IMG/VR virus record: IMGVR_UViG_3300022928_001147
Span: 17,495 to 81,494 of that record
Strand: one strand, 5' to 3'
DNA: 64,000 bases
DNA from: a virus
Shown here: piece after piece, positions 1-48,600 of the stretch
Layout of the letters: every line of letters starts with the position of its first letter
Numbering within the stretch: position 1 is the stretch's first letter
Made by a program: the position numbers and the translations under genes
The notes under the pieces: model-generated
Database searches by the model: none
What the model was told of the DNA's origin: nothing
The model's input: only the letters and a program-made list of their open reading frames with translations

Positions 1-204
1 GCTTTAAAAATAAACTTTGTGCCATTTATGATAGGGTTTGTTCTTGGACCAAAGTTTGAAATTGTATTTCGTAGATCACTAGTACTAAATGATGGAAATT
101 TTAGCATTTTCGTTGATCGTCCAATATCATTAGCACTATTATGCATTTGTGTAATACTGGTGTTAATTGGCATAAATAAGTATATAAGAAACTTCAGGAG
201 TTAA
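1..204 (+). CDS. tctA: Tripartite tricarboxylate transporter permease TctA, C-terminal fragment (5' end outside window)
   Basis: Frame open from base 1; PFMIGFVLGPKFEIVFRRSLVLNDGNFSIFVDRPISLALL matches the TctA C-terminal pattern (GFxLGPxxE..RR.L...G...F..RPIS). Confidence 0.75.
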   Translation, partial: ALKINFVPFMIGFVLGPKFEIVFRRSLVLNDGNFSIFVDRPISLALLCICVILVLIGINKYIRNFRS

Positions 205-206
205 CA

Positions 207-1157
207 ATGAGTAAGAAACTTACATGGGTTATAGCACATGAACCATATCACCTTTTTATTAATGCAGCACAGCAATTTTCAGAAGAAATTTTTACTGAAA
301 CTAACGGAGAATACGAAATTGAAGTATTAGGGTTATCAGATTGGGCTGAACGTCGTGGTATAGATATCAGTGTACATTTTAAAGATCGCGAACGAGTTGT
401 GCAACTTGTAAACGATGGTACAATTGACATTGCTACAACTTATATCGAAACTCTAGGTAAGATTGAAAAAGATTTATATGTACTTGGCATGCCATTCTTG
501 TTTAATGACGACGATCATGCTACTGATGTTTTAGATGGTGTAATTGGTGAATCGTTATTATCAAAGTTAAGTGCTAAAAGTAATATTCAAGGTCTTGCGT
601 TTACATACTCAGGTGGTTTTAGAATTATGCCAGGTAGCCAAGCACTTGAAACTTTTGAAGATTTCTACAATTTGCCTGTAGCATGTAGTCACAGTCCGGT
701 GAGCTTTGATACATTTAAAGCAACAGGTGCTGATCCTAGGCCAATGGCTATTGATGCAGTTAAATCTGCTATTACTAACGGTGATGTGAAGGCAGGTTCT
801 ACTACATATGCTCGTTTCTTTGCAAGTGGTTACAACGATGTTGCTGAAGTAATTAACGATACACAACATAGTTTATTTTTAACTTCAATGATCACTAACT
901 CAAAACTATGGAACGAGATGAGTTCAAAGACTAGAGCAATTTTTAAACAGGCTGCACTAAGTGCTGCTAAGTTAGAACGTGAAGAAAGTGTACGTGACAA
1001 TACACGAGTTCAAGCAGAAGCTGCTAAGTCTGGAATTCCAACAATTATTATGCCAAGCAAGGAAAAGATTAAACTTGTTAATGCTACTAAATCAATTTAT
1101 GACAAGTATTATACTTACTTTAGTAGCGGCCTTTTATCAAGTATTGAACGACATTGA
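207..1157 (+). CDS. dctP: TRAP transporter substrate-binding protein, DctP family (no signal peptide)
   Basis: DctP motifs: TNGEYEIEV, GTIDIA, MPFLF, GGFR, TFKATGADPRPM, WNEMS...IFKQAA; RBS AGGAG just upstream. Confidence 0.85.
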   Translation: MSKKLTWVIAHEPYHLFINAAQQFSEEIFTETNGEYEIEVLGLSDWAERRGIDISVHFKDRERVVQLVNDGTIDIATTYIETLGKIEKDLYVLGMPFLFNDDDHATDVLDGVIGESLLSKLSAKSNIQGLAFTYSGGFRIMPGSQALETFEDFYNLPVACSHSPVSFDTFKATGADPRPMAIDAVKSAITNGDVKAGSTTYARFFASGYNDVAEVINDTQHSLFLTSMITNSKLWNEMSSKTRAIFKQAALSAAKLEREESVRDNTRVQAEAAKSGIPTIIMPSKEKIKLVNATKSIYDKYYTYFSSGLLSSIERH

Positions 1158-1170
1158 AAATTTAGACATT

Positions 1171-1198
1171 AAAAAAAGGCGCATTATGCGCCTTTTTT
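1171..1198. terminator. Bidirectional intrinsic terminator between convergent dctP and tctC
   Basis: aaaaaaaggcgca-tta-tgcgcctttttt: perfect inverted repeat with a U-tract on each strand. Confidence 0.9.
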
Positions 1199-1218
1199 AT
1201 TGAAGTTGATATAACTTC

Positions 1219-2190
1219 TTATTTTTTAGATCCGTACATTTCCATGTATGTCTTTTCCCAAGTTTTTCTATTAGCAATGTAATAAGTTCTCTGACCTTCT
1301 GGTCCGATAAATGCATTATCTAAATTCAAGAACACTTTATCTCTTGCTTGCTTGGCAGCTTCTGTTTTTACAGCTTTAGTTATGGCAGCAACATACCAAT
1401 CAACTGCTTCTTGCGGAGTACCTGCTTTTACGCTAATACCCATATCTACTGTCATAACAAAGTTTGGTATAACGCTAGACAATGTAGGAACATCTGGTAA
1501 GAATTCTAAACGTTCTGTTCCTGTAGTAGCTAAAAAGCGAACTTTTCCTGCCTGTTGTAAAGGAATAGCTGGACTTAGTCCACTAACAAATACGTCAGCC
1601 GAACCACCAACTACGTCAGTAAGTGCTGCGGCTGGGTTTTTGTATTTTACAAATTTAATGTTTGATCCATCTGAGCCTACGCTTTGTGCAAGCAAACGTA
1701 CAATTGCTTCTGAGTTAGGATACGTAGTAGCAATAACTACCTTTTCACCTGTTGCAATTGCATTTGCAAGATCATTAATTGTTTTAAATCGGCCAGCTTC
1801 AGAAACAGTTACAGCAGTAGTGCTGTGCGCAATGCCTGAAATGTATACAAAGTCTTTGTCCCAATCCCATTTTGCAATCTCTGGAGATGAAATATCTGAC
1901 AATACAAGACTTAAACTAGCAGTCAATGTAATGTTTTGTCCATCTGCTGGTAACGACAAGAAATGATTAGTTCCTTTAACACTAGCTGCGCCTGGTTTGT
2001 AATCAATAATAAAATCTACACCAGTTTGTTCTTCTAATGTTGGAAGAATTGTTTTGAAAGTAGTATCATGTAGGCTTCCAGCAGGTGCAGTAATAGTAAC
2101 TGTTACTGGTCCATTAGGTTCCCATGCATGTGCAGATGATGCAAATGCAGCAATTGCAAAGGATGCAATCAATCCGTATAGTTTACTCAT
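1219..2190 (-). CDS. tctC: Tripartite tricarboxylate transporter substrate-binding protein (TctC/Bug family)
   Basis: Signal peptide ending AHA-W; motifs PAGS.HD, YKPGA, PADG, ALTDVVGG..D, GKVRFLA, LPDVPTL, GTPQE; RBS AGGAG. Confidence 0.85.
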   Translation of the reverse strand: MSKLYGLIASFAIAAFASSAHAWEPNGPVTVTITAPAGSLHDTTFKTILPTLEEQTGVDFIIDYKPGAASVKGTNHFLSLPADGQNITLTASLSLVLSDISSPEIAKWDWDKDFVYISGIAHSTTAVTVSEAGRFKTINDLANAIATGEKVVIATTYPNSEAIVRLLAQSVGSDGSNIKFVKYKNPAAALTDVVGGSADVFVSGLSPAIPLQQAGKVRFLATTGTERLEFLPDVPTLSSVIPNFVMTVDMGISVKAGTPQEAVDWYVAAITKAVKTEAAKQARDKVFLNLDNAFIGPEGQRTYYIANRKTWEKTYMEMYGSKK

Positions 2191-7160: not shown

Positions 7161-8323
7161 TGTTTAAATATAGGAAATGTTGCAATTAAATTTTCATTGC
7201 GTGATTTGTCTAATGCAGTGTGATGCTGCCAAAACTTATCCCATAACTCCTTAGTGTATTCATCTTGTTTTACAAATGCTAGTATACTACTGATGCAACT
7301 GTAGTCATACTTATCTAACTTATTAACAACTTTATTTTTTAAATCTGTTGGAAGTACACTTGCACTTAGATGTTCTGGATAGCGAACAAATGTAATTTCA
7401 GTTTCAATGCCCATACTATCAAACCATTCTAATGCTTCAGGTATGTAATATACATTAGTGTTTTGTACTGTAATTTTAGCAACAATACGAATGTTAGGAT
7501 ATTTTTTAAGTTGTAATATATTGTCTTGTATTTGCTGCCATTTACTACCGCAGCGAATATAATCGTTTTGTTCCTTGTTCCCGTCAAGACTTACTGCAAG
7601 TTTTACTGCTTTAAATTTACTCCAGTAATCTAATACGTTATATTTTTTAAATTTTAACATGCTTAAATTAGTAGCATAACTTAAAAATATTTCGTCTGCT
7701 CTGTCAATTACTTTATCTAGAACCATATAATGTTTTTCGTCAAATAACGGCTCGCCACCTGCGAAATTTAATTCTAACACTTCAGTTAGATCAAGCCCTT
7801 CTATAAATGCATCTTCATAGCCTAAATAAGGTTTTTTAGTAAGACCGAGATTGACTATATGTTCTTGCCAGTCTATAGGTTGCAAGTCACTAATCTTGTC
7901 CCATTCTTTAAACCAACTGGTACTATCATGAACGCTGCACATACGGCAAGCAAAGTTGCACAAGTTGCTTAGTTTAAGTTCAAGCCATTTTACTCCTGTT
8001 GACAAACTGCCGTCTGGCGACATTATAGAAACTGCATGCTCATATTCGTCGAGCATTTTCTTACTTCGTTTGTTAAGATATTTTTGTCTTAAACTATCTA
8101 CCCCTGCATCTTCGTCTTTATAACATACTTCACAATGCTTATTTCTGATGCCGTTAACCATATCGAGCCGTACTTGTTTTATAGTATCACAATTCCAAGC
8201 CTCTGTTAATGACATAGAGTTAGTATTTCCGATTCTAGGAAGACTACGACAACACAGTTTTATACTGCCGTCAGTCTTAGTACTTTGATGTACAAACGGT
8301 GCAGGACAGATAGTTTTACTCAT
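7157..8323 (-). CDS. Radical SAM protein, class A
   Basis: CPAPF...KLCC...CEVC; core CNFACRMC, AGGEPL, TN. Confidence 0.9.
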   Translation of the reverse strand: MSKTICPAPFVHQSTKTDGSIKLCCRSLPRIGNTNSMSLTEAWNCDTIKQVRLDMVNGIRNKHCEVCYKDEDAGVDSLRQKYLNKRSKKMLDEYEHAVSIMSPDGSLSTGVKWLELKLSNLCNFACRMCSVHDSTSWFKEWDKISDLQPIDWQEHIVNLGLTKKPYLGYEDAFIEGLDLTEVLELNFAGGEPLFDEKHYMVLDKVIDRADEIFLSYATNLSMLKFKKYNVLDYWSKFKAVKLAVSLDGNKEQNDYIRCGSKWQQIQDNILQLKKYPNIRIVAKITVQNTNVYYIPEALEWFDSMGIETEITFVRYPEHLSASVLPTDLKNKVVNKLDKYDYSCISSILAFVKQDEYTKELWDKFWQHHTALDKSRNENLIATFPIFKQ

Positions 8324-8916
8324 GTGTTCTCCATATACAATTGCTTGTTTTTAGGACGCAAAGGATCATTCTCGTTCCATCTATCACTTACTCGTAATTT
8401 AAATGTTATTCCATAAGTTTTAGCTAATGCTTGTGCTGCTTCTATTTGATGTTCATTAAAACTAAAAGGTATAAATTGCCAAACAATATCTTTGCCTAAT
8501 ATTGCACCTAATTTCATTGCTGCCATACTGCTATCAAAGTCTATATTTTTTCTATACATATGTGCAGTATTTTTCAGGCCATCTACGCCAAATACAACTT
8601 TACCATGTGTATAACTATTATAAAATTCTTTCCACCAGTCTAATTTTTTACCACTTCCATTAGTTGCCATAATAAAAAATACATTTTGTGTGTCAAAGAA
8701 TTTTATTATATCAATCAACTTTGGATGATATATCGGATCTCCTAGATTGCCGCTTAACAATACTTTTTTATAATTACCAGACTGAATAACTGTTTTGATA
8801 ACATCAACAGGTAAATCAGTTATTTGTATATTGCCTTTAAGATCTGTGCGCGGACACTTAGGACATTCTAACAAACATCTACGTGTTAATTCAAAATGCA
8901 CTTTTTCACTATACAT
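8320..8916 (-). CDS. Radical SAM protein, class C, core only (no C-terminal SPASM)
   Basis: CLLECPKCPR, GNLGDPIYHP, TNG, DGL, WQFIPF.FNEHQ; start moved to ATG 8916, which overlaps the upstream stop. Confidence 0.85.
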   Translation of the reverse strand: MYSEKVHFELTRRCLLECPKCPRTDLKGNIQITDLPVDVIKTVIQSGNYKKVLLSGNLGDPIYHPKLIDIIKFFDTQNVFFIMATNGSGKKLDWWKEFYNSYTHGKVVFGVDGLKNTAHMYRKNIDFDSSMAAMKLGAILGKDIVWQFIPFSFNEHQIEAAQALAKTYGITFKLRVSDRWNENDPLRPKNKQLYMENT

Positions 8917-9205
8917 CTTCGACAACCTTTGTTAACGGATTCTTTAAATTATCTGCAATTGCTCCGCAATGTGTTTTACAAGTAGGTCCAGCAGATTCAG
9001 GATTAGCTATTAAATTGTCTATCCAGTTTTTTAAATGTACATTAACAATTTCATCATAGGGCGTTTTTGTTATATCAAATTTATCACATTCAAACTGTTG
9101 ATATTCGTTACGCTCAGGCCTATCACTGAGAAAACAACAAGGACGCACATGCCCTGTTGCAGTAATAAACTGATCTTTCCCTCTTGCACATTTAGGATAA
9201 ATCAT
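8909..9205 (-). CDS. Stand-alone SPASM/twitch-like Fe-S domain protein
   Basis: PKC...FITATGHVRPCCF...CKTHCG aligns with the C-termini of 21582..22619 and 22619..23683. Confidence 0.75.
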   Translation of the reverse strand: MIYPKCARGKDQFITATGHVRPCCFLSDRPERNEYQQFECDKFDITKTPYDEIVNVHLKNWIDNLIANPESAGPTCKTHCGAIADNLKNPLTKVVEDV

Positions 9206-9828
9206 TGTTTCTCCAATATAAAAAACAAATTTTCAGGATATTCAGTAAGTTTGAAATTATAATTTTTAGCAAATTCTTTCACAGCAATTTCAAGTTCGGG
9301 CCAATCCTTGTTTTTATAGTCGTCGCCACATATAACTTTCGTATCTTTAAAATATTCTAAAACTTTTTTTGTGTGTTCGTAGGTGTGTTCCGAATCGAGA
9401 TATATAGCATCATATGTCGAACAATACTTTTTATAAATGTACTGGTGTGTAGACATCGACGTAACATTAGATAACAATTTATATTTAGGATGATGCTCCA
9501 TTACAAAATTCCAGACTTCTTTATGAGACATATTTTTTAACATATTAACTATGTTCGACCAGATATCCAAATTTTTGCCAAATTTGGGCATTCTATCAGA
9601 ACGAACAAAATCAGGAATTTCTGATGCATCAACATTAAAGGAATCTAACACGTCGTATGTGGTATCGTCAGGCAAAACGTCTAACCACGCCCAAGTACTC
9701 CTTCCAAAAAGCACACCAATTTCTAAAAACTTTGCATTTTTAGGTAGTAGTTTTGCAACTTCTGCGTATCGCTGATGCTGATATATACTTGTAAATCCAG
9801 GGACTTGTCTTGCTTGAATTATTTCCAT
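9202..9828 (-). CDS. Class I SAM-dependent methyltransferase (Methyltransf_24-like), copy 2
   Basis: FLEIGVLFGRST, YDAIYLDSEHTY, ICGDDY. Confidence 0.8.
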   Translation of the reverse strand: MEIIQARQVPGFTSIYQHQRYAEVAKLLPKNAKFLEIGVLFGRSTWAWLDVLPDDTTYDVLDSFNVDASEIPDFVRSDRMPKFGKNLDIWSNIVNMLKNMSHKEVWNFVMEHHPKYKLLSNVTSMSTHQYIYKKYCSTYDAIYLDSEHTYEHTKKVLEYFKDTKVICGDDYKNKDWPELEIAVKEFAKNYNFKLTEYPENLFFILEKQ

Positions 9829-9944
9829 TTAGTAGTCCTCACGTCACTATCAGCTCCGCCGCTTAAACGAATTCCTATTCCTTTATGCTGTGCAGCATCT
9901 AAAGGAATATTAATAGTAGAATTATTATAACGATACACAGTCAT
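9819..9944 (-). pseudogene. 41-aa chimeric mini-ORF: QueC-like N-terminus fused to a class B rSAM C-terminus
   Basis: Hand translation MTVYRYNNSTINIPLDAAQHKGIGIRLSGGADSDVRTTKWK*; RLSGGADS resembles RLSGGFDS (13791 gene) and DVRTTKWK* resembles DVRATKWR* (10564 gene). Confidence 0.75.
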
Positions 9945-10573
9945 TGATTTTCCAATATAAAAAATAAATTTTTACGATGTTCAGTAAGTTTAAAATTATA
10001 TTTTTTAGCAAATTCTTTTACAGCTTTTTCTACGCCTGGCCAATCTGGATTACCATAATCGTCCCCACATATAACTTTAGTATTTTTAAAGTGCTCTAGA
10101 GTTTGCATTACACCGTCATAAGATTGATTAGCATCTATAAATATAGCATCGTAATTAACTCCGTATTCGTCTTGAATATACTGCTGAAGACGCATTGTCA
10201 ATACAAATTTAACTATATGAAACTTAGGATGATGTTGTAATACAAAATTCCAAACTTCTCTATGAGACATCGTTTTTAATAAATTAGCTATACCTTCCCA
10301 GCAATCTAAATGATTTCCAGGAGTTGACGGTTTTCTACCAGCATTTTTATTAAATTCTGGTATATCTTCTGGTCCAATATCAAATTTGTCCAATGCATCA
10401 TAGTGTGCATCTCCAGGCAATGCATCTAACCACGCCCAAGAGCTCCTACCAAGGGAAACTCCTATTTCTAAAAATCTAGGTTTCTCAGGTAATAAGTCAA
10501 CTACATCTTTATATAATTTGTGTTGATACATGCTAGTAAACCCAGGCACATATCGTGCTAAAGTTATCTCCAT
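9941..10573 (-). CDS. Class I SAM-dependent methyltransferase (Methyltransf_24-like), copy 1
   Basis: FLEIGVSLGRSS, YDAIFIDA, ICGDDY; co-linear paralog of 9202..9828. Confidence 0.8.
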   Translation of the reverse strand: MEITLARYVPGFTSMYQHKLYKDVVDLLPEKPRFLEIGVSLGRSSWAWLDALPGDAHYDALDKFDIGPEDIPEFNKNAGRKPSTPGNHLDCWEGIANLLKTMSHREVWNFVLQHHPKFHIVKFVLTMRLQQYIQDEYGVNYDAIFIDANQSYDGVMQTLEHFKNTKVICGDDYGNPDWPGVEKAVKEFAKKYNFKLTEHRKNLFFILENQ

Positions 10574-11610
10574 TTTGTTGCCCTTACATCATGGCTACAG
10601 AAACAATGCTTGACTTTGCACACTGTGGGTTCTACAGTCCAATCAAAAGTTGTACAATTATCAGTTAAATAATTGCCAAACACTTTTCCCTGTCTACAAC
10701 TAGCATCGGCACTAACCATTCCATTAGAACCTATATAGAGAACATCTATACCTACATTACACTTCCAGCCAGTCCAAGAATTTTCACCCGATGCGGCCAT
10801 TGCTTCAGGTATAGATTTAATATAATCTGTTTCATTATATCGAAATGTAATACCACTGCCCATACTTGTAGACTGTTTGCGTATAATAGTGTTGTCTTGG
10901 CGCAACCATTCTAACTGTTCTTGAGTATAAGTCACCATCCTTAAATGACTTCCTATATCGTCACTTTTATAATTTTCTCTAATTGGTTTTTTAGCAAGTA
11001 CAGCAAACGTACCTTTTTCTTTTAGCAATTCGTATGTTTCAACAACATACTCCCATTTACTAGCAAGTGCAAGAACAAGAGCTCCTGTTTTAACACCTTT
11101 CGAATCTAATAGATTACACACTTCTAAACAATGATCTTTGTCTGCAAATTCAGGATGAAAGCTATATACGATATCAGAAAACATTCCGCCATACTGGTCC
11201 CACCAACGCACTGACCTTGCTCCGTTGGTAACTAGTCTTACATAATTGTTATCGTACTTTTTAAGTTCTGTAACAAATTTCTCAATGTCTTTCCATACTG
11301 TAACTTCACCGCCTATAAGTTCCCATACTATAGAAGTCTTGTGTTCTTTGTATACTCGATTAATTTCAGCAACAATTTCTAGTGCCTTTTCTACAGGGGG
11401 CCAAGGATTAGTAGCACCGTAGTGCTCAGGTGTACAATAGCTACATTTATAAGTGCAAGTATTTCCTAGCGCCCAATTAATACTAAGTGTATTTGACTTT
11501 CTGTTATAACTTTTAATTACATCAACAGGAAGCTCGCCAGCAGCAACTCTTGTTCTAAAATCGTCACGCTGATCTCCCCACAATGTTATTAAGTTGTTAT
11601 ATTCCATCAA
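10564..11610 (-). CDS. Radical SAM protein, class B
   Basis: CTYKCSYC, IGGEVT, TNG; C-terminal WKCNVG...SC...CKVKHCFC. Confidence 0.9.
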   Translation of the reverse strand: MMEYNNLITLWGDQRDDFRTRVAAGELPVDVIKSYNRKSNTLSINWALGNTCTYKCSYCTPEHYGATNPWPPVEKALEIVAEINRVYKEHKTSIVWELIGGEVTVWKDIEKFVTELKKYDNNYVRLVTNGARSVRWWDQYGGMFSDIVYSFHPEFADKDHCLEVCNLLDSKGVKTGALVLALASKWEYVVETYELLKEKGTFAVLAKKPIRENYKSDDIGSHLRMVTYTQEQLEWLRQDNTIIRKQSTSMGSGITFRYNETDYIKSIPEAMAASGENSWTGWKCNVGIDVLYIGSNGMVSADASCRQGKVFGNYLTDNCTTFDWTVEPTVCKVKHCFCSHDVRATKWR

Positions 11611-13006
11611 AAATACCCTTCATTTCTGGAAAAGTTTCATAAAAACTATTTCCTCTATGTGCATCGTTGAGTTCTAAGAATTCTTTCATTTCAGGTAGTC
11701 GAACACTCCAGTCCTCGCTTTCCATAAATTTTAACATGCCTTCTAAACGACTGATGCCATAACTTGCTGCGAGCCAATCGTCTTTAGTAACTTTGCCTTT
11801 ATGCCATTCAGGAATACCTTTTTCCCAGTTAGCTTCCCACCATGGATAAAATTCTTCATACTTTTTGCGACATGCTGCTTTAAATTCTTTAGGCAAGACT
11901 TTAACATTAAGATGAGGTGGATGATAAACAAAGTGATAATTTACCGCACCTGCACCAAACGGCCACATGTTGATTTTCTTGAATCCTTCTTCTAACTTCC
12001 AACGAATAAAATCAGGAATGTAATAGATGTTTAATGCTTGTACTGCACATGCAATTGTAATTTCAGTGTTTGACGGCGTTTGTGTGTCTAAAATGTGAAA
12101 CACTTCTTTAGTTCGTTCCCATTTACTAGGATAGCGTATATAGTCATTCATTTCGTGTATACTGTCTACACTATAATGGAACCGCACAAGTTTAAACTCT
12201 TTCCAGAGATCAAACAAATCTTCACGCCATTCTACACCATTTGAGTTGTAGCGTAATTCAAGGTTTTTAGCATAGCCCATTTTAATAGCATGTTCAAGAA
12301 TCTCATAGTGTTCTTCAATAATAAGACTTTCGCCGCCAGCAAAATAAATTTGTTGCATGCTTGGCATCTGTTCATAGAACTGTTTCCAAAATGTAGGATT
12401 TTGTTTATGCCAATTGTAACTACTACCATTGTAGCTGCCTTTGTCCTGCCATTGCATTGTTTCTTTTAGACTTGCATTTTCTACAGCAGGAAAGATTGCT
12501 TTATAATCTTTGATCCATCCCGAGCTGTCGTGCGGGCTACACATAATACATGCTAATTGGCACTTAGTTCCGAATCGCAAATCAATATATGCAAGCTGGG
12601 GAGGAACACTTCCGTCTTCTTTAGTATCAGCAATTAATTTATCAACATCAACACGCTGACTCCAATACTTAGTTTCCCACATACGCTTTGAATTATGTCC
12701 AGCAGCTTCTTCTTTGTAGCATTTTAAACAACTAGGCGGTTTTTCTCCTGCAAGCATTTGCTTACGCACGTTTTTCATATATGTGCTGTTCCAAGCAGTT
12801 TCAAAATCGCTTACGTTTAAGTTGTTAGGTTTGCCGTCTTCTGTTTTAAGAATACCAACTTGGCCGCCGTGTTCTTTGTCATTAGTTGCACCTACACTGC
12901 TTGCATTTGCAGTACAGCATACTCGCATACTACCATCTGGTCGAGTACTAAGATGCACCCACGGCAATAAACAAAATGTGTTAGAGGGTAATTTGTGATC
13001 AGACAT
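11597..13006 (-). CDS. Radical SAM protein, class A
   Basis: CLLPW...RVCC...CLKC; core CQLACIMC, AGGES, NSNG. Confidence 0.9.
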   Translation of the reverse strand: MSDHKLPSNTFCLLPWVHLSTRPDGSMRVCCTANASSVGATNDKEHGGQVGILKTEDGKPNNLNVSDFETAWNSTYMKNVRKQMLAGEKPPSCLKCYKEEAAGHNSKRMWETKYWSQRVDVDKLIADTKEDGSVPPQLAYIDLRFGTKCQLACIMCSPHDSSGWIKDYKAIFPAVENASLKETMQWQDKGSYNGSSYNWHKQNPTFWKQFYEQMPSMQQIYFAGGESLIIEEHYEILEHAIKMGYAKNLELRYNSNGVEWREDLFDLWKEFKLVRFHYSVDSIHEMNDYIRYPSKWERTKEVFHILDTQTPSNTEITIACAVQALNIYYIPDFIRWKLEEGFKKINMWPFGAGAVNYHFVYHPPHLNVKVLPKEFKAACRKKYEEFYPWWEANWEKGIPEWHKGKVTKDDWLAASYGISRLEGMLKFMESEDWSVRLPEMKEFLELNDAHRGNSFYETFPEMKGIFDGI

Positions 13007-13091
13007 ATTTTTTAAACCTTTTATTTAAATTTAGTAAGTTGGTTTTTCTAATGTTATCTACTGTATTGTAACATAATGGCGGTTTATTCAT
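12999..13091 (-). pseudogene. 30-aa mini-ORF: internally deleted class A radical SAM gene
   Basis: MNKPPLCY+NTVDNIRKTNLLNLNKRFKKYV* resembles the start (DKPLCY) and end (SLDAVRQTNLVDIDERFKDYV*) of 18377..19519; overlaps both neighbours. Confidence 0.75.
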
Positions 13092-13692
13092 TAATTCTCT
13101 CTTTGATTTCTTGATAAAGGAGTCGCCCAAACTCTTTATGACCAGCTGGTCCTGGGTGGCTATTATCCAATGCTTTCGGATGCTCTCGACGTATTTTATT
13201 AATACTTGTTCTACACAATTGAACATCATTCCAATTAAAATCGTGTTTATACATCCCAGATCCAAAAGCATGAAAATTTAATATGTTTCGTTTAGTTAAA
13301 AAATAATGAGCATAATTAAGTCTAGTGTACATGTCTACCTTCATATCATAAAAATCATGGACATTGCGGTAAAAAAATCTAGATGTTTTGTCGGTTTGCC
13401 AAGCATTAATATGTTTTATACCATCTTCAGTTATAATACAATACCTGTCAAAATGAGACCATAATACAACTACCATGTCTTCATCTTGATAATTAAAATT
13501 TTGTAGGTTGTATAAAATTTCTTTATTACTTGATCCAGATACTGCACAATTAACAAGTTCTCTGTTAAGACGATTTGCAACTTCATTCGGCCATGCAAAC
13601 TTGCTTGGCAGACTTCCATTATGGCCATTTTCCCAACAATCTTCTAAACCAGTGCCGTATGTTAAACTGCATCCAAATGTAATTAACCTCAT
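13084..13692 (-). CDS. SGNH/GDSL-like hydrolase or acyltransferase
   Basis: FGCSLTYG, NCAVSGSSN, DNSHPG; ATG 13692 preferred over TTG 13707. Confidence 0.7.
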   Translation of the reverse strand: MRLITFGCSLTYGTGLEDCWENGHNGSLPSKFAWPNEVANRLNRELVNCAVSGSSNKEILYNLQNFNYQDEDMVVVLWSHFDRYCIITEDGIKHINAWQTDKTSRFFYRNVHDFYDMKVDMYTRLNYAHYFLTKRNILNFHAFGSGMYKHDFNWNDVQLCRTSINKIRREHPKALDNSHPGPAGHKEFGRLLYQEIKERINE

Positions 13693-13696
13693 AAAT

Positions 13697-13801
13697 TTAC
13701 TCTTCAAATAATTCTTTATATTCGGACACTATGTCAAGTATAGTTTGATTTCTATTTTTGTCTTTCGATGGTAATTTTCTATCAGCTATATTATTTTTCA
13801 T
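13697..13801 (-). pseudogene. 34-aa mini-ORF: internally deleted class A radical SAM gene
   Basis: MKNNIADRKLPSK+DKNRNQTILDIVSEYKELFEE*; DRKLPS resembles DHKLPS (start of 11597 gene) and the tail resembles DNLRNQNILDIVPEYKGLF (end of 14533 gene). Confidence 0.75.
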
Positions 13802-14546
13802 AGTTTTTATTTGCCCATTCTCTTTCGTAACACCACCAACATATAGGAGATGTCTTACAAGTTGTTGTAAAATTATCTGTTGCTTCTCTAAGTCCTTCGC
13901 AGCTTCTTGTAATAGATAACATATCTTGCAAAATGCCAAATCGATCTGCTAAGGAAAATACTATTCTTTTATCAAAATTTCTAAAAGGTTCTATTTCATG
14001 ACCAAACTGTTTAGTGTTATGATACACTGACCTTGAATTAGCTATTGCTCCAATTATTAGAGGTACTTGTCTATTTTTTTCAGGATTATGTTTTTCTTCG
14101 CCTATATGTACATCTGGATTTTTTGTTACTCCGTTATACGAAACAACATCAGTGTCTAAATTATAATCTTTAATAATTTTTAATAATAACTCATCCTGTG
14201 CGTTACTATAAATTTTTCCAGTATCGTTATCTAACCACCAATTGTCAACGTCGAGTCGTTGTGTAGGTTTTACATCTAAATTAGGAAATTTGTCTTTGAC
14301 ATAATCTAATATAGTGTCAACTACAGGATACGGATTTGCTTTATCCATAGCTGGATCATTATTAGGATTGTTTATCTTTCTCACAGTTAAAGGATAAATC
14401 GACGGTGATAAGTTATTTTCGTTCAACAGAAATGCAATAGTGTATAACATTACTGCACTATCAAATCCGCCACTTAGCCGTACGATTATATTAGAACAAT
14501 CAAGTTTAAAGGCCACCTTTCCATAAGCAGTTTTATAAAAATTCAT
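13791..14546 (-). CDS. QueC-like PP-loop ATP pyrophosphatase with Cys-rich Zn site
   Basis: RLSGGFDS PP-loop; TRSC...CKTSPICWWCYER; start moved to ATG 14546. Confidence 0.75.
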   Translation of the reverse strand: MNFYKTAYGKVAFKLDCSNIIVRLSGGFDSAVMLYTIAFLLNENNLSPSIYPLTVRKINNPNNDPAMDKANPYPVVDTILDYVKDKFPNLDVKPTQRLDVDNWWLDNDTGKIYSNAQDELLLKIIKDYNLDTDVVSYNGVTKNPDVHIGEEKHNPEKNRQVPLIIGAIANSRSVYHNTKQFGHEIEPFRNFDKRIVFSLADRFGILQDMLSITRSCEGLREATDNFTTTCKTSPICWWCYEREWANKNYEK

Positions 14547-15840
14547 TAAATAATCCTTTATATTCTGGAACAATATCCAAAATATTTTGGTTTCTTAAAT
14601 TGTCTAATTTAACTGTGTAATCAATAAAGTTTGACAATTTGTCGCTTTCGTCTTTCCCTTGCATGTAGTTACTTATACTATCAAGTATCTTGCAAGCACG
14701 TTTATTGGTAGCATCGTCAAAATTATCAAATGTTGTCTTACATTTTTCATAATGTGCAACTATGTCATCTTTAATATCCTGAGGCAATACTCTTACACTG
14801 CTGTACCAAGGCTTGTGACACATATGATGTGACATAATTTTAATATTCTTTCCTGCTCCTATGCGTTTGAATTCTTGTTTGACTATCCAGTTAATAAATT
14901 CTGGAATGTGATATACGTTTAAGTTTGTAACAGTACACGCTATCCAAGCATCTACATTAGGAAGAGTATCAACTATTTTTAAATTCTTTTCTATTGCACT
15001 CCATTTAGCAGGGTAACGTTGGTATTCTAATACTTTCCCCATACCGTCGATGCTTGCACCAATTTTTATTCTTTTAAACTTTTCCCATAACACTAATACC
15101 TTAGTAGGAATGTTAGTTAAATTAGTATTGTATTCTATAGTTATGCGATGAGCATTATTACTATCAATACACTTTTGTAAAAACTCATAATGGCGTTCTA
15201 TCATTAGAGGTTCGCCACCTGCCATGTAAACATGTTCAATGTTTTTTATGTTCGATTCAATATGTTCCCAGAAAGTTGTACTATAGTGCCAATCATACGC
15301 ATCTGTAACCCATCTGCCATTCTCATTTTTCTCAAGTGTAACCTTGCCATGTGTGTCATCCCATTTATTACCGTACATGTTAACCCAGTCTTTATACCAA
15401 GTATGGCTATCTTCAGGGCCGCACATTCGACAAGCTAAATTACATAAATTTCCAAAGCGTAAATCGTAATACACTAACGGATTTTTATCAATATTAATTT
15501 CTCCGTCTACTGTTGTCGAATCAATAATTGAATCAATTGATGTATTCCATATATCATTTTCGTACATCCGTCTACTTCTTAGTCCGCTCTCTTCTTCTTG
15601 TTGACAGCGTGTACAATCGGGGTGCCATTTGCCTTCAAGCATTGTCTTGCGAACGTCTTTAATCAATGCTGCATTGCGGGCTTCGTCTAAAGAATCTGAA
15701 CCTGCGTTATAAGGAACGCCATTGTCTTTCTTTAATGTACCACGGCCGGGTGTAGAGTTCATTTGACAGCAGACTCTTACTGTTCCGTTATTTTGTACTG
15801 CTTGAAAGTTCCAAGGAATAGGACAAAATGTTTTAGGCAT
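14533..15840 (-). CDS. Radical SAM protein, class A
   Basis: CPIPW...RVCC...CTRC; core CNLACRMC, AGGEPL, NTN. Confidence 0.9.
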   Translation of the reverse strand: MPKTFCPIPWNFQAVQNNGTVRVCCQMNSTPGRGTLKKDNGVPYNAGSDSLDEARNAALIKDVRKTMLEGKWHPDCTRCQQEEESGLRSRRMYENDIWNTSIDSIIDSTTVDGEINIDKNPLVYYDLRFGNLCNLACRMCGPEDSHTWYKDWVNMYGNKWDDTHGKVTLEKNENGRWVTDAYDWHYSTTFWEHIESNIKNIEHVYMAGGEPLMIERHYEFLQKCIDSNNAHRITIEYNTNLTNIPTKVLVLWEKFKRIKIGASIDGMGKVLEYQRYPAKWSAIEKNLKIVDTLPNVDAWIACTVTNLNVYHIPEFINWIVKQEFKRIGAGKNIKIMSHHMCHKPWYSSVRVLPQDIKDDIVAHYEKCKTTFDNFDDATNKRACKILDSISNYMQGKDESDKLSNFIDYTVKLDNLRNQNILDIVPEYKGLFNEFL

Positions 15841-39604: not shown

Positions 39605-39612
39605 TATTTATC
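39605..39612 (-). promoter_or_regulatory. Late-like promoter box GATAAATA
   Basis: Overlaps the TAA stop of the giant gene, upstream of 39585. Confidence 0.5.
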
Positions 39613-42600
39613 GCGGCAGGTCAACTGTTGCTGCACGTAAGAATCTACTGATGTCAGAATCTGATTCACCTAATGGTGTTCCAGGTACATTCCATAGTAT
39701 TCCTTGACGTCTAACAACAATAACCTTAACGTTTTCGGTCGGTGTTTCTGTTAATGTTAATGTAGTACCGTCTACACTAAATTCCGCTGGCAATGTAACA
39801 TCGCCTTCTGGGCTATCTTGCGCAGTAAGAGTAGTAAAATTGTAGCTACTAATTGCGTTTTTACGCAAACGTCTGCCACCTACAAATACTTCAAACTCGT
39901 TTATACTACTTGGCTCAAAGTCTAGTGTGTAGTCTGCCGTTGTACCATTTGCTAAGAATTGTGTAGTTAATGTTTCGTCTTTGTATGGCATAGTTGCTGT
40001 AGGACCTTGGTTGTAAACATTTTCACCTGCTAAGTAAATTGCTTTAACACCAGTACCTAACGTACCTCTGCGTAATTGACTCAATACATTTCCATTTCTT
40101 ACAAAATATTCGATACGCTCGCCTGCAATAAACAATATTCCAGGAACACTACTTGTTGGACTTGGTTCAGGAAGATTAGATCCATCTGTTACTGTAATAC
40201 TTTGATCGTACCAGTTTAGATCAGCAGCAAGCATAACACCATTTCTATCGTCAAGACGCTTGTAATGTGTTCTATTAAGCATATCTTTAAACTGACTCCA
40301 TCCATACTTGTCAACTAATATAGGATCTGCAAAATGTAGCAATTCAATTACATCATTTTCTTCAATGCCTATATCAATTTTAACATAACGTTTGTTATCA
40401 GTTACATAATAATGTACACTTGGTATTAGTAATTCGCCGTTTAGTGTAACCCATACATATTGTGCATCAAGTGCAGGCTTTGATAATTCAATTAGTCCAG
40501 CAGTTAAATGATTATATCTATACCAGTCGTCTGTCCCAACTGTTAGAGATACTCTGTCTACAACATCATACTGCTGTCTATCAAAGCCTTGCGAGTCATG
40601 GTTGCTAAACTGATACACTGTTATGATATCGCCTTCGTTGTATGCGCTATCAAGATGTAATATGCCAGGTGTTGATACAAACTCGTTATTTGTATCAAAA
40701 TATCCATAACGGTATTCGCCATCATTAGTAACATACACATTTAATATGTCACCGTCTTGTTGATTAACTCTAGCCTTTAGTCTAATAGTACTACCTGTGC
40801 TGTTTGATTTTGATCCGGTAAACGTCCATTCAGTATTATAAGTTAATTCTACGTTATTTAAAAATACTTTTATTTGCCTGTTATCGATCGTTCCTGCTGG
40901 AATTTGGAATTCTTCTAACTGATATTCACGCTTAGATGCCGTTGTTACAAATCGGCGTGTATACCCTGCATTAAGGATTTTGTTGTTAACTTTCACAACA
41001 CTAAACCAAGCACTTGGTTCATTATTAAATGGTGTTTGGTTTAGTGCAAATTCTACAGTGCTGCCATCAGCAGTAAATGTATCAATTGACACTTCACTAA
41101 AGTTTTGTGTTTCGCCTTTAAAGAATGCATAACTTATTACACTACCTGCTTCTGGCGGTGTAGCTAATGATATTACAGCATTATTAGGATAATCATAAGT
41201 ATCATCACTTTGTTCAACTACATTATTTAATGCTTCACCATTTACAGTAATAAAGTACTGTAGCTCAGTATCAAATCTTACATTAGTTAAGAATTTATTA
41301 GTTGTACCGTCAGCAATAATATTATCAATATCAAGGATGTCAGTACCGCTTACTCCTAGTACTGCTAGATGTACTTTTGCGTTTAATGCAGGTGCAGTAT
41401 TGAATGTAATAGTCTTAGCAGCATAATCTACAGTATATGCATCAGCTGATATAATATTAAATCCTACTTTTACAAACAAACTATTTGCTTGCAGTGGCGT
41501 AGTGTCTAAACTAAACGTTGTAGTTACACCATCACCTGTATAATTTCTTGACGTAATCTGACTGCTACCAGCTTGCGGTCTTTCATAAACTTTAATATCA
41601 ACTGTGTCGAGCAGTTGTCCTGGTACTAATTCTTCCGGGCCTGCACTTGTAGTTTGTGTTACAAATCCGTCACCGTCGATAGTAATGTCTTCAGCTCTTA
41701 GACCAGTTGCAGTTGAATAATTTAATGCTCCGCCTGTCAATATAGTATCGTAGCTGTTAGGATCAGGCAAATATGTACCATCACTAGTTGTCTTTCTAAT
41801 GATGATAATATCACCTGCTTGGTTAGCAAGATCAAGGCCATCATTATCAAGGAACACTACTTGTGTTACACCATCGCCTGTAATACTCTGACATATTGCG
41901 TTCGGATTTGTTACAGGGTTAACTGTACCGTAGTTAATATCATCTACTCTTACACCATTTTTATAAACGTTATAAACAACTCCACTTGCTAATGGCGCTG
42001 CAAGATCAAGACTTATAGTCGAACCGTCAAGTTCGAATATTTCATCTTCAAACGATGTGTCATAGCTATCCCAAGTTTCTTCATACCATCCTTCAGAATC
42101 CCATCCTCGGCCGCCGCTAAAGTCAAAGCTCTTAACTTCTACTCCGCCATAATCAAGACCAGTCATAAGTTGATTTAAATCGTTACCAGGCATTCCTGTA
42201 GTAGGTGTATAATAATTATTAATTCTGTCTTGAGCTTGCATTAAGTTGATAGATTTTTTATATTCAACTCTTATTAGTTTATTAGCTTCTGGAGCATTAG
42301 TAAATTCAATTTGCCCGTAATAACGATCATACCCTTTGGTAGTATCAAGTACATTAGTATAAGTGTACTCGCTATTTAATGCCTCTTGATTGCTAACAAA
42401 TACCTTTACATTTGATTTTAATAAATCCATTGGCCAAACTAAATCAAACTCAAATTTATTGCCACTTGCTGTAAATGTCTCAGTATGATTCAATACTGTA
42501 TAAACATATGTTCCTGTAGTCCTGTCAAACTTAACAATAGTGTGCATTCCTCTAACAGGACTTTCGCCTATTTGAACACTGTAAGTAGCAGCTTCGCCAT

Positions 42601-45600
42601 CATCTTCAATATTGTTTAATTCTGATATCGTAGGAGCAGTGTAATAACCATTACCTGAACTTATTACATCAACTTTAGTTACTGTGCCGTTAGTTCCAAT
42701 ATGTGCTTTTAATATTGCGCCCGAGCCGCTATCACTTGACAACAACAGCACAGGAGCACTCCTATATCCGCTACCAGGATTAACTACTTCAACTTTTACA
42801 ACTTTGTATCCATTATTGTCTAACCAATTTTTATTTGGATATGTTTCAATATTAGCATTTACTCCAACTAAAACACCGTCTTGCACTTTTACAGATTGTG
42901 GAAGAATTTTTCCTTCAACTGTATCGTATGCCGGAGGTAAGTCAAAATCAGTAACTACAGTACTTGTGTTGTCAAGTCCTTGATATGCGCTTAGGTACTC
43001 TCTAATTTTAGTGCCAAACGGTTTAACTTCTTTAATGTATGATTCGTAGCTTGGAAGATTATCGTTGTTAAACGTGATATCTTCTCGTAGCATTCCAACA
43101 TTATGTTTAGCTTTAATAAAACTAGTTTTAAACGCCCAGTCAATATAAGTCTGTTCGCTAAATGCATAGCGCAGGCTTGCAAAGAATAATGCATTAAAGT
43201 CAACTAATAAATCATCAATGAACAAATCATTTTTAATAGATTCTAAAATAGTTCTAAGTTCAATAACTGGCTCACTATCGTAAATTTTTGTATCAAAACT
43301 TATAGTATCAAACCCTGTAGACGATTCAGCTGAATCATACAATGTAGATTTAAATTGAATTGTTCCGTCTTGTCTGCCTACTGTTTTATAATTTATAGTA
43401 TAATCTTCAGTATCTTGACTATCTATTTTCTCCAACAATAGCCATCCGCCTGAACCTATTGTAGATATTTTAATAACATCACCAATAGCGTCATTTAATG
43501 CAGTAAGCTCATAGCTATTATCAATTAGATAATCAATTTCAGTTAACTCGCTATATCCAGTAGCATACCAGTCTGCATAATCCCAATACAATCTTACATT
43601 ATAGCTTTGACTTTTTATTCTGTTCCATGATCTTGATTCACTAATTCTTTCGTAAATTGCCCATTTACCTTGAATCGTAGTATCACTGTTAACTAATACA
43701 GTAAATCTTCTTACAGTTAACGTAGGAGTATCATTATAATTTTCTCCAGATTGAATAACATTAACTCCATTTACTCGACCTAAATTATCAATAGTCGTTT
43801 GTAGTTCTGCTCCCGAACCCTCGCCAGTAATAGTTACAGTAGGTGGAACTCTATAACCTCTACCTGGGTCTACAATATTAACTGTTATAATTTTACCATT
43901 AACTACTACAGGCGTTAACACAGCTTGTGTTGCCTTTGCAACACCAACAAATGCTAAATCATCTATTGTATCAACTTCTGCATCCCATTGCGCAGAAACT
44001 GCTGTTGGAGCAGGGTCGGCATTAAACAATGTGGTAAAGATCTTGTCATCTACAATTAAGTTTTCCTTAAGAATAAGATTAGTTCTTTCAACAAACTGTT
44101 TTAATGCTTCGGCTCTATTAATAAACCAACTCTGTCTCGGTTTGTTAAGTGAACCGTACTTTTGCTTAGTGCTTAAACTTGGATCAGGAACAACACGATA
44201 TTGTTCGTCATATCCAATTAAACTATCGTACCATTTTCTAATAATATCTCTGTTAGGCTGACTTGTTTCTAGTCCTTCTGATATAATCTGATATTGATTA
44301 TGAACGTTTTGATTTTGATTATCAATAGTCCAGAATTGTGTACTTAACGCAACGTCAGTTCCCTTGATAAATCTTTCAACATTATACATTACAAAGCTGC
44401 TCGGACTAATTAAGCCAACAAATGTATATCCTTTAGCAACTGGATCAGCAATATAATCAGCAACATCACTGATATTAATATTTCTAAATTCTACATCTGG
44501 AATAGTTTTCTTGTTAGCGACCCAGAAATAATAAGTTGTCTTAAATGTACCTGCTATACTGTCGTACTTGCGCTTAGTACTGTAAGTACTATCTCCATAT
44601 AAACTTGTTCCGCTATAACCTTTTGCGAATCCATTTTCAGTATCAGCTTGAGCATCCCATACGCTAGGTAACACGGTTGATTCTACCCACTCGAAGACAT
44701 CGATACTATTACCTTGGAATAATTTACTCCAGTTTTGTGTGCTATAAATTACATCTCCTTGATACGGGTTGTAGAATTTAGCGTTAGTTAGATTCCACCA
44801 TACTTCGCCTACGTGTTCACTGCCCCAACTATTAGTTACATCAATAGTAGTACCAGAAACAGTAGAAGTGTCATATAATGCAGGATCGTAATATGTTTTA
44901 AATGTTAATTCTTGTTCAGCAACCCCTGCAACTTTTCCTTGAATTGGATCAATATAATCTAAGTAAGTTAATAACTGATTGTCCTTTGTATCGTATAGGA
45001 ACATCTTTTTAATTTTATCAATATCAACTGTTGGTTTAGCAACTCTATGCGTAGTCCACATTGTACTAAATTTGTTGTTAGAAAAATCTAATACTTGTCC
45101 AATTCTAGATCCATCAATTTTATTAGGTAATCCAACATATAAGTGATTATTTTTAGCAAGTATATTTCTGCCAAAGTAATTTACGTCAGCATCTGCTATT
45201 TGTACTGTTTGTGCAAGTATCATCGCTGACGATACTTTTTCGTAAACATATACAACTCCTACGTCAGCAATTATATTTTTAAAACTTGTAAAATTGCCGT
45301 CAAACACAGTTTGGTAATTGTCAAAATATGTCTTAGCATCTGAATCTGCATTTCTAGCAGAGATATGTAGTTTCTCACCGTCAAACTGTAATTTCCAGCC
45401 AAACATCTCTGCACGCTCATTTTTAGGACTATTTAATATTTGTGATAATTCAAATACTCCATTAACTTGCTTGTATATATAAACTACACCTTGATCAGCA
45501 AGGAGGTCATCATTTAACGGAGCACTAATTGCAATCACAGTTCCGTCGTCTGATATTGCTATTGCTTGACCAAATGCCGATGTTTTATCAGGTGCTTCTA

Positions 45601-48600
45601 ACTCTTGTGACTTTTCAAACTGCCCATTGTTTGATCTGTAAACTACAACTTGATTAGGTTTAGTAACATCATATAATGCATTTACAATTAATACTTCTCC
45701 AGATGTTGCAACATCAAATTGCGATGCAATTTCTTCTAAACCTGTTTGATCTAATACTACATTGCTATTTGATCCTACACGCAAACCTGTAGAATTTGGA
45801 ATGTATCCAACGTAATCAACTAAGTCTGGCGTTAATATCCAATCGTTAGAATTAAATGCTCCCGCAGCAAGATTAGTTTTTGCAATATATAAATTATTAT
45901 TTAGATATACTATATCATTTGTAAAGTAGTTAGCTCCTGTACTAAATGTACCTTTAAAAGTTTTATTCTTTGCATAATCCCAGTTGTATGTTAATCCGTT
46001 TTCTTCACCTTTCTTAATGAAGTACAATCTGCCCGGTAAGCTGGTGCTTTTAGTACCTTCGGCATGAACAAATCCTCTATACAAATCGTTGTATTTGGTA
46101 ATCTTTACACTACTACCAAGTTTAAGGTTAGATTGCTTTTCAGGAACTGTATAGCTTGCTACAGGATTGTATCTACCAGGAGCAGCTCTTGAATAAAGTG
46201 TATATAATCCTTCATTAGTAAGACTACTAGGAGTCCCAGTTGCTTCGGCAGTGATTTGGTATACTTGAGTCCATTCATTATTAGATGCACTTGGAGTATT
46301 AGCTAGTCTAGGAATACCTAATACTGTTCCAGAAGTATAGAACCAATATTCTATATCTAATAATCTTGAAGTTAAAGTTATTGCTATATCTGCGCCGGCA
46401 TCAAATACTAACAGTTTACCTATGCCTTCGCTCGGTAATCCTAAACTTACATATTGTACTTGGCCTATTGTTCTGTCGGCTTGATATGTAGGGCTAGGAT
46501 CTCCTGGAATTGCTAAGAATTCAATTTCAGTATTATCAGCATATACATCGCCGTTACTCCACGTACCAGATACATTCTTAACAAATAATGTTGCATTAAG
46601 GTTGTTTCTCTGATAATATGCGACTATAGCAGTTGCACCAGTTTTTAAATCTCTTACTGTTTGACCAACTTTAGGTTCATACGGGTTATTGCCTGCATCA
46701 AATTTTGTAAAATTGAGGTTAATATAACCGTCCCACACATCGTACACTGTTTGCAATTTATTAGTAACAGTTGTCGATAGTCCAATAGTTGTTAAGTCAC
46801 GAACAATGCCACTGTCGTATATTGGTAATTGATTAACATATAAATTAAGTGTAGATCCCGGAGTTACACTAACTGCACTAGGAGCTCTAACTACATATAA
46901 ACTACTTAAGAAATCGTCGTTTGATCCTCCAGGTCCTGGAAGTCCTCGAAAACTTAATTTTTCGATATACGCATTATAAGTATTTTGACTGCTTATTATA
47001 TTAGGCTTGTAATCTAAAGAATTAACAAATAGTCTATTAGTATCTATACCGTCTGGAATAACATCATATACTACAAGGGCTCTAGCTTGATCTACATTTT
47101 CTGTAAATATTGTAGGAGTATAAGACGGAGTATTAATAAACCAGAAGCCGCCAAGCTCAGTACCTGTATCGATACTGTCAGTAGGTCCTTGCTTAATATA
47201 TTCTCCAATAAAGTCGCCGTCGTCTCTAAACAAACTGTCATTGGTTTCAAAACTACCATTAACATTTGTTAAGTATATTATTGTTTCAGCACCACTTAAA
47301 TACACATAATCAACTGTACCGAACGCAGTTTGTGTTTGTAATATATCACCAATTTCTGGTTGATTAGTCGAAGCATTAATATATAACACTACATCAATTT
47401 TCTTTTGTATAGTGTGTGTCTGTTGTAAAAACGTTGCATCAATTTCTGCAAATGACCCGTTAAACGGCTCACGAGATTCGAGCGGCGCTAATGATTGGTT
47501 AGCATATGTTATTTGATTCCATGCTAATTTAATTTGGTCATTAATTCCACTACCTTGATATTGCTCAAAAGGTGCTCTAACCAACAAGTGATTTGTAGGA
47601 ATAGTTGTAAATGCTAATGCTCCAGTATTTGGATTAATTGCATAATTACCTACTAATAACCCTTGTATAGTGGATGTAGCATTAGACTCGATGTCTAAAT
47701 TATCTACAATATTGGCCATCGAATTAAAACTATTAAATTCAATGTTTGCAGTAGCACCTTGAATACTAACTAATGATTTCCACAACTGCTCACCTTGAGA
47801 AACAACTGATCCTTTAACATAATCATCGCCTGCGACAAATTCGCCTGCATATTTTGTTTTTACGTTAGAAGCATTAGGTGAACCAACTATTACATACGCA
47901 CCGTCTGGACTAATTGCTACTGCTGCGCCGAAGCGTTCTAAATCATCACCATATTTAAATGGTTCTATTACTTGTGTTTGCACAAAGGCTAACGAATCAG
48001 CAGCACGATTGTAAACATAAACTCTGCCGTCGCCTTCATCAGGTGAACCAACAATTAATGTAGTATTTCTATCATCAACACTTAATGCAGTACCAAACGA
48101 GATATCTAAAGAATTAGACGGTTTAGTTAATCGTAACTTCTCTATAAACGAATTTTCATTTTTAAGTACTGCCCATTTACCAACACCATTAACATCATCG
48201 ATCCATATATAATCACTAGGTGTTAGACTTTTTTGTACAATTGTATTTGCTTCCGTTATATTAGAAGCACGTACTTTCAAGAAGCGGGTAATAGATCCAA
48301 CGCACTCTGGTATTTCAGTTTGTGCTGCTGACGTTGTTACTGCAATCTTGCTACCAGTTATAGAAGCTACAGTATAAAATCCTTCTAAATCAAATTTTTC
48401 TGTAGTCGATGCTGCTGTTGAATCTTCAGCATTATACTCAACATAATTGCTAAAACTATGTAATCCAATAACATCGCCAACTGCAATATCAGTCGGAGTT
48501 TTAGTAAGTGTTAGTGTAAACTGAGTAGTTCCTTCTGATACCGATTCAACTATATAATCAGTGTCAATGTGCTTGTAAACATTCCAATCAAGATTATCAT

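Follow-up and report, generated by a model that had tools for sequence, protein, structure and literature searches.

How do three short open reading frames (ORFs), each made of the two ends of enzyme genes joined in frame, come to lie in a densely packed phage operon? The question is raised by a stretch of 64,000 nt (the window; positions 17,495 to 81,494 of the IMG/VR record IMGVR_UViG_3300022928_001147). The source of this gene array is a large marine myovirus, and the operon encodes paralogous radical SAM enzymes together with tailoring enzymes. The three ORFs, here called mini1 (41 aa, 9819..9944), mini2 (30 aa, 12999..13091) and mini3 (34 aa, 13697..13801), all lie on the minus strand. 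An original prediction made from the sequence alone had described them as in-frame fusions, and translation confirmed them at these positions. We give a probability of about 0.68 to the reading that out-of-register (illegitimate) recombination left them as scars in an operon whose genes are tightly packed and overlap. On this reading the mechanism is ordinary misaligned recombination that keeps the signals at the gene junctions.

All three mini-ORFs are homologous to the termini of intact genes. The head of mini1 (codons 1-33, 9846-9944) is that of a PP-loop ATPase; it aligns with the PP-loop family through the SGGxDS motif and matches the N-terminus of a full-length 231-aa PP-loop protein, found on the sibling contig L108 (a JGI contig), in 32 of 33 residues. 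The tail of mini1 (9819-9845, the last 8 codons and the stop) is that of a class-B radical SAM protein. Its 8 residues agree with the C-terminus of the 348-aa class-B radical SAM protein encoded in the window (10564..11610, minus) at 6 positions, and its nucleotides at 21 of 27, including an embedded methyltransferase start. In mini2, 8 head codons are joined to 22 tail codons, both of the 380-aa radical SAM subfamily, and the best head match and the best tail match both come from orthologues of that subfamily. Mini3 is composed of 12 head codons of a 469-type radical SAM gene and 22 tail codons of a 435-type gene. A hidden Markov model (HMM) for the tail only, built from 71 class-A C-termini, was run in six frames on the window and on 107 related loci. 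It found the tails of mini3 (independent E-value 0.0012) and mini2 (0.011) as the sole internal orphan tails among 53,876 ORFs. The predicted design of an enzyme head on a radical SAM tail was thus right for the tails, all of which are radical SAM, and too narrow for the heads, since those of mini2 and mini3 are radical SAM as well.

The mini-ORFs fit closely into the operon, as had been noted. The ATG of mini1 shares the letters ATGA with the stop of the gene for a 210-aa methyltransferase (4-nt overlap), and its stop lies 10 nt inside the gene for a second, 208-aa methyltransferase (9202-9828). Mini2 overlaps by 8 nt with the stop of a GDSL hydrolase gene and by 8 nt with the start of the 469-aa radical SAM gene (11597..13006, minus). 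Mini3 overlaps by 11 nt with the stop of a 251-aa PP-loop ATPase-like gene (13791..14546, minus); 4 nt separate its end from the GDSL ATG at 13692. This is the geometry of translational couplers: the starts overlap by 4, 8 and 11 nt, and the ends overlap by 10 and 8 nt or leave a 4-nt spacer. The tails hold Shine-Dalgarno sequences of the AAGG/GAGGA type 8-14 nt before the next ATG, like other junctions of the array. When the mini-ORFs are counted, 18 successive junctions (20693 to 5335) overlap or are 4 nt apart; when they are left out, junction gaps of 77-112 nt appear.

Sibling strains show what stands at these positions in close relatives. Mini1 borders on a variable block A (9207..9844, minus), which comprises the class-B radical SAM tail and the 208-aa methyltransferase gene; sibling strains have 595 other letters there, the body of a PP-loop gene. 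On L108 a 210-type methyltransferase gene (95% identical) is followed by the overlapping full-length 231-aa PP-loop gene, a SPASM-only gene and a radical SAM core gene. As far as 9845, precisely the boundary between the head and tail of mini1, the window and L108 share 98.1% identity. They are then unlike (638 nt versus 595 nt), and resume at 9206 with 89% identity, or 76% in the first 100 nt. This step in identity at the joint (98.1% versus 89%) is what a change of ancestry predicts. The allele of L108, with the PP-loop gene, appears as a joint from 9206 to 9845 in runs X12, X19 and X21 (salt-marsh, riverine and crustacean metagenomes), and X19 holds a more diverged allele of 695 letters at block A, which is dominant in the riverine run. 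The L108 PP-loop protein itself has weak matches to QueC and NAD_synthase, and its relatives in IMG/VR are only about 30% identical.

Because the gene body is replaced and the downstream flank is diverged (89% versus 98% upstream), mini1 would be the product of an out-of-register exchange between diverged arrays. The simplest reading of the sequences is a crossover of two diverged arrays of the order class-B radical SAM, methyltransferase, (PP-loop), SPASM. The left joint, judged by its sequence, is illegitimate; the breakpoint inspection that had been proposed found no more than 1-3 nt of microhomology there, and the parents of mini2 and mini3 are unsampled. In other loci, no class-B radical SAM gene stands before the methyltransferase homologues. 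A joint transfer of tail and methyltransferase is therefore an idea that rests on the window's own paralogous module, in which the C-terminus of the 348-aa radical SAM gene overlaps the start of the 210-aa Methyltransf_24 gene (9941..10573, minus) and serves as the model for the mini1 tail.

Mini3 and mini2 belong to a second variable block, block B (12980..13786, minus; 807 nt), which holds the mini3 tail, the GDSL gene, mini2 and a second 469-type head and is absent from sibling strains. Its cargo is a GDSL/SGNH hydrolase gene (13084..13692, minus; 202 aa from the ATG, a start backed by the 202-aa database form P0042). The siblings hold 17-21 other letters in its place. A joint from 12979 to 13787 with 21 other letters is carried by contigs of all four runs X12, X14, X19 and X21, and the dominant riverine strain in X19 has a joint from 12989 to 13793 with 17 other letters; the 21-letter joint was not found in IMG/VR. 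Since both alleles lacking block B read in frame on the minus strand from the ATG of mini3 into the 469 gene, strains differ by the presence or absence of block B. The two forms in X12 are identical in the PP-loop gene and at positions 9845-11580, and the 469 alleles between these identical segments are about 81% identical; thus the variable tract is a mosaic block.

More distant relatives indicate where the parts of mini3 came from. Five IMG/VR relatives (L001-L004 and L006) have the PP-loop gene directly followed by the 469 orthologue. In L058 a 469 gene, a 435-like gene and a GDSL gene stand adjacent and full length, and L102 has a 435-like gene before GDSL; the 435-like tails of both loci closely resemble that of mini3. 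Codon 12 of a 469 gene fused to the last 22 codons of the 435-like gene of an L058-type array yields mini3 followed by GDSL. Hence at least two genes were lost or bypassed at mini3. Full-length counterparts had been expected at all three positions: relatives provide them for mini1 (the 231-aa PP-loop gene of L108) and for mini3 (a 469 gene at the same ATG), so that for these two an intact gene or a scar-free junction is known in close relatives. It could also be seen that the enzyme set differs between close strains exactly at the joints, as predicted, with a PP-loop gene versus a second methyltransferase at one and GDSL present or absent at the other. Only mini2, with head and tail from one subfamily, fits the collapse of one gene in place.

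The two 469-type heads form an imperfect 33-nt direct repeat (76% identical; 12981..13013 at the head of the 469 gene and 13764..13796 at the head of mini3, both minus), spaced by 783 nt and bracketing block B. Recombination between these repeated heads could, as far as the sequence indicates, delete block B again. In L005 (10744-11375) a 631-nt insertion with an unrelated ORF of about 150 aa lies between the PP-loop gene and the 469 orthologue, where the GDSL block sits here, which makes this junction an insertion hot spot. The mini3 tail also contains a promoter-like match (TTGACA, 18 nt, AATTAT; 13708-13737, minus) 16 nt upstream of the GDSL ATG, whose -35 hexamer coincides with the conserved LDI codons of the radical SAM tail. 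It could be a chance match in AT-rich DNA; the stretch has 42 promoter consensus matches versus a shuffle mean of 26, and the promoter is treated as unproven.

The chimeric homology, the intact sibling alleles, the exact breakpoints and the retained start contexts are all observed, and from these we infer the direction and order of events. In each scar a resident gene would contribute its 5' end, and the former upstream neighbour of the downstream gene its 3' end. The 5' ends would be kept because they overlap the upstream stop and carry a working start site, and the 3' ends because they hold the Shine-Dalgarno sequence and ATG of the downstream gene. As gene starts sit inside or against the preceding gene, viable rearrangements would have to keep the head bases and 20-30 nt of tail. 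At mini1, a class-B radical SAM, methyltransferase, SPASM array of a diverged strain would have been joined to the resident PP-loop gene, from the ninth-from-last radical SAM codon to codon 33 of the PP-loop gene; in this event the methyltransferase would have been duplicated and the PP-loop gene destroyed. At mini3, codon 12 of a 469-type gene would have been joined to the last 22 codons of the 435-type gene that precedes GDSL, with two enzyme bodies removed or bypassed, and mini2 would be an internal collapse of a 380-type gene.

Several observations weigh against this recombination account. All three joints are in frame (nominal p = 1/27), which hints at selection on the survivors. All three relics are very small, and random end points in a gene of 400 codons usually leave larger pieces; this small size is a hint of selection or of repeated trimming. 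Relatives showed no full-length gene at the position of mini2, nor was a 380-like gene adjacent to a 469 gene seen in the related loci. The best GDSL relative is 45% identical, and the donors of GDSL and of the 208-aa methyltransferase are unsampled; single-protein scans of IMG/VR with the GDSL and the 210-aa methyltransferase gave no matches, and when cultured phages were searched by tblastn with the PP-loop and GDSL proteins, the result was likewise empty. Block B may be a gain of this lineage or a loss among the siblings. Finally, the mini-ORFs occur in one clonal lineage only, so their conservation is not measurable.

The strongest competing explanation is the one originally proposed, in which enzyme bodies are deleted in place like the folds of an accordion and coupled translation spares only in-frame deletions that keep both joints, so that the mini-ORFs are selected couplers. 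The chimeric remnants do keep the overlap joints, as that explanation demands, and the closed series of 18 junctions, the one-subfamily origin of mini2 and start contexts identical to those of intact sibling genes all speak for it, as does a known case of coupling, comEB and comEC, to which we return below. Frame speaks for it too: out-of-frame joints in mini2 and mini3 would meet stops 37-60 nt short of the next ATG, and ascertainment bias is limited because orphan tails out of frame were absent from the window in the six-frame scan, although the sample is still tiny. Mini1, by contrast, ends by the next ATG whatever the frame, the stops in its other two frames lying 1 and 11 nt before it. 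It is also a replacement by foreign DNA with a diverged flank rather than an excision, and mini3 spans two different genes. The odds of 1 in 27 (0.04) are arithmetically right but presume three independent events; with only three joints, two of which flank one cassette, they become 1/9 (0.11) if mini2 and mini3 entered together. Each downstream gene moreover has its own Shine-Dalgarno sequence, and since 130 related loci (107 + 23; six-frame scan, about 100 full-length class-A genes) contain no comparable mini-ORF, there is no sign of a general accordion mechanism. An in-frame joint may make it easier for ribosomes to reach the next start. Yet as the sample is tiny and mini1 insensitive to frame, we keep selection for coupling as a live rival and not as a finding, and regard deletion in place as rather unlikely. 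A combined version is similarly doubtful: cassettes would be exchanged and then filtered by translation, only in-frame joints being viable and the mini-ORFs being selected couplers, and the repeated heads would let the GDSL cassette go again. If true, the translation filter and the repeated heads would amount to a rule for the gain and loss of enzymes in phage biosynthetic arrays.

It is far less probable that the mini-ORFs encode functional small proteins, either decoys of the class-A C-terminal motif or precursor peptides of the radical SAM/SPASM kind. They are probably translated from their inherited starts, because in sibling strains intact genes use these start sites; the conserved LD..R...PE.K motif is still present in the tails, and class-A enzymes are weakly similar to peptide maturases such as PapB. 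Enzyme function is ruled out, because every catalytic motif is lacking. The mini-ORFs have neither CxxxCxxC nor the twitch cysteines. The match of mini2 and mini3 to a class-A HMM is confined to its last ~20 positions, and they are not N_Twi_rSAM members (NF033640, cut-off 170 bits), whereas their full-length neighbours score 339-420 bits. Mini1 has SGGADS but ends 8 residues later, far from the SGGxDS motif plus nucleotide-binding fold of about 200 residues that defines PP-loop ATP pyrophosphatases. Nor do they resemble precursors of ribosomally synthesized and post-translationally modified peptides: they are plainly enzyme termini and no distinct peptide family, neither the sibling strains nor any of the 130 related loci carry them, and the protein collection contains no short homologue. 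For mini3, none was found among 5.8 billion proteins, where a search of the 30-43-aa size region returned mini3 alone. In an AlphaFold2 model of the 435-aa enzyme (mean predicted local distance difference test score 93.8) the tail forms the last helices of the C-terminal helical region, so it is predicted to be unlikely to fold alone, and in mini1 the tail is just 8 residues. The peptides thus appear to have no function of their own.

Least credible of all is an assembly chimera, or an intron-like intervening sequence inside the 469 gene. Such ideas arise because the de Bruijn graph of X12 branches exactly at the joints and because block B lies within the 5' end of the 469 frame, bracketed by the repeated head. 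However, every joint is spanned by unbranched contigs in X14 and X12, which answers the question of an artefact that the original prediction had raised, and the exact mini1 and mini3 peptides occur on 23 public contigs of up to 104.6 kb from several assemblers. On the 46.7-kb and 104.6-kb contigs the neighbouring proteins are 66-100% identical. Of the sampled words, 96% or more are present in each of at least 13 salt-marsh DNA runs, and 45-85% in RNA-library runs; contigs from RNA libraries cover the region, though coverage alone shows neither transcription nor translation. The mini-ORFs are not assembly artefacts. The public contigs also contradict the expectation that annotation pipelines would miss such short ORFs, as mini1 and mini3 were called by gene finders. 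We rejected a structured RNA, such as an intron, in block B, since an Rfam scan gave no intron or other RNA family at E<=1. The downstream 469 copy, moreover, is equipped with an ATG and a Shine-Dalgarno sequence of its own.

The array around the scars has further features of its own. The virus record is 81.5 kb long with 35% G+C, and the window carries T4-like baseplate and fibre genes, its baseplate wedge protein being about 35% identical to counterparts from large myoviruses, e. g. Atu_ph07 and SCTP-2. The operon runs uninterrupted on the minus strand from about 20693 to 2247, and its genes, more than 20 in number, overlap. Among them are eight N-twitch radical SAM genes (NF033640-type HMM; 339-420 bits for the scored ones), radical SAM genes of other classes, two Methyltransf_24, two GDSL-like, one PP-loop ATPase-like, nitroreductase and 2OG-oxygenase-like genes. 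One of the N-twitch genes encodes the 435-aa protein (14533..15840, minus) that is the nearest relative of the mini3 tail in the window (71% over 21 aa). The 469-aa protein is by far the most conserved of the array, with 80-86% amino acid identity in many IMG/VR contigs whose remaining array genes reach 25-60%; it looks like an anchor with changing upstream neighbours. The 208-aa and 210-aa methyltransferases are paralogues with 57% identity. Their genes are 68% identical over the whole length and 88% over the last 90 nt (9202-9291 versus 9941-10030), a pattern suggestive of gene conversion or of a strong constraint on the 3' junction. Further downstream, a 98-aa SPASM/twitch-only ORF (8909-9205, minus) overlaps by 8 nt with a radical SAM core ORF of about 198 aa (8320-8916). 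The pair looks, by sequence, like an N-twitch enzyme split into two genes. As the split is kept in L108 (1228-1524 and 1517-1825), it is probably no recent frameshift. Genes for tctA-like and tctC-like components of a tripartite tricarboxylate transporter and for a DctP-like binding protein (window 1-2190 and the genome upstream) adjoin the enzyme island, and a single ORF of 4949 aa (39608-54457, minus) separates the baseplate wedge gene from the fibre-like genes.

If the mini-ORFs are scars of misaligned recombination, they provide an example at the level of breakpoints of how a phage biosynthetic array changes its enzyme set between co-occurring strains, and they record former gene neighbours. 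They are also a warning for annotation: short ORFs that fill gaps in overlapping operons can be in-frame fused termini and not new small proteins. Should the in-frame pattern prove general, translational coupling would be a constraint on the modular evolution of phage operons.

How does this locus compare with known systems? In tailed phages, unequal or illegitimate recombination leaves scars and gene remnants at mosaic boundaries, where segments of different ancestry meet in the cut-off heads and tails of genes. The abrupt change of flank identity at the mini1 joint (98% versus 89%) is of this kind; what sets the locus apart is that three in-frame remnants bridge overlapping start/stop junctions exactly and read as complete mini-genes. 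The nearest process on record is that in the hyperplastic regions of T4-type phages, where modules are shuffled through PeSL cassettes (Arbiol et al. 2010, PMC2839356; PMC4122927). There as here, the differences between close phages are non-essential genes inserted, deleted or replaced at junctions that recur, and short repeated junctions bracket the variable gene, a role that the 33-nt repeated gene head would play in block B. PeSLs, however, are intergenic and pair a strong sigma-70-like promoter with a terminator stem-loop, whereas the array has no intergenic space; no terminator-like hairpin was seen on the minus strand near the joints, and the promoter-like matches are consensus matches only, in AT-rich DNA. 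The array is therefore not a PeSL system: the retained elements are coding termini with stop/start overlaps, and the joints are illegitimate and not homologous. A marine T4-like viral genome with 12 radical SAM genes has been described (Nishimura et al. 2017, PMC5332604). It likewise holds an island of many radical SAM genes, of which the present array has eight of class A; remnants or strain-level cassette differences are not described in that paper. The closest parallel in translation is comEB and comEC of Bacillus subtilis, where the coupling has been measured and translation of the upstream ORF is needed for comEC synthesis (bioRxiv 10.1101/2020.12.30.424838). In our array coupling is suggested by geometry, and the upstream ORFs are remnants of 30-41 codons; in both cases a possibly dispensable ORF ends at the next start and contains the ribosome-binding site of the next gene.

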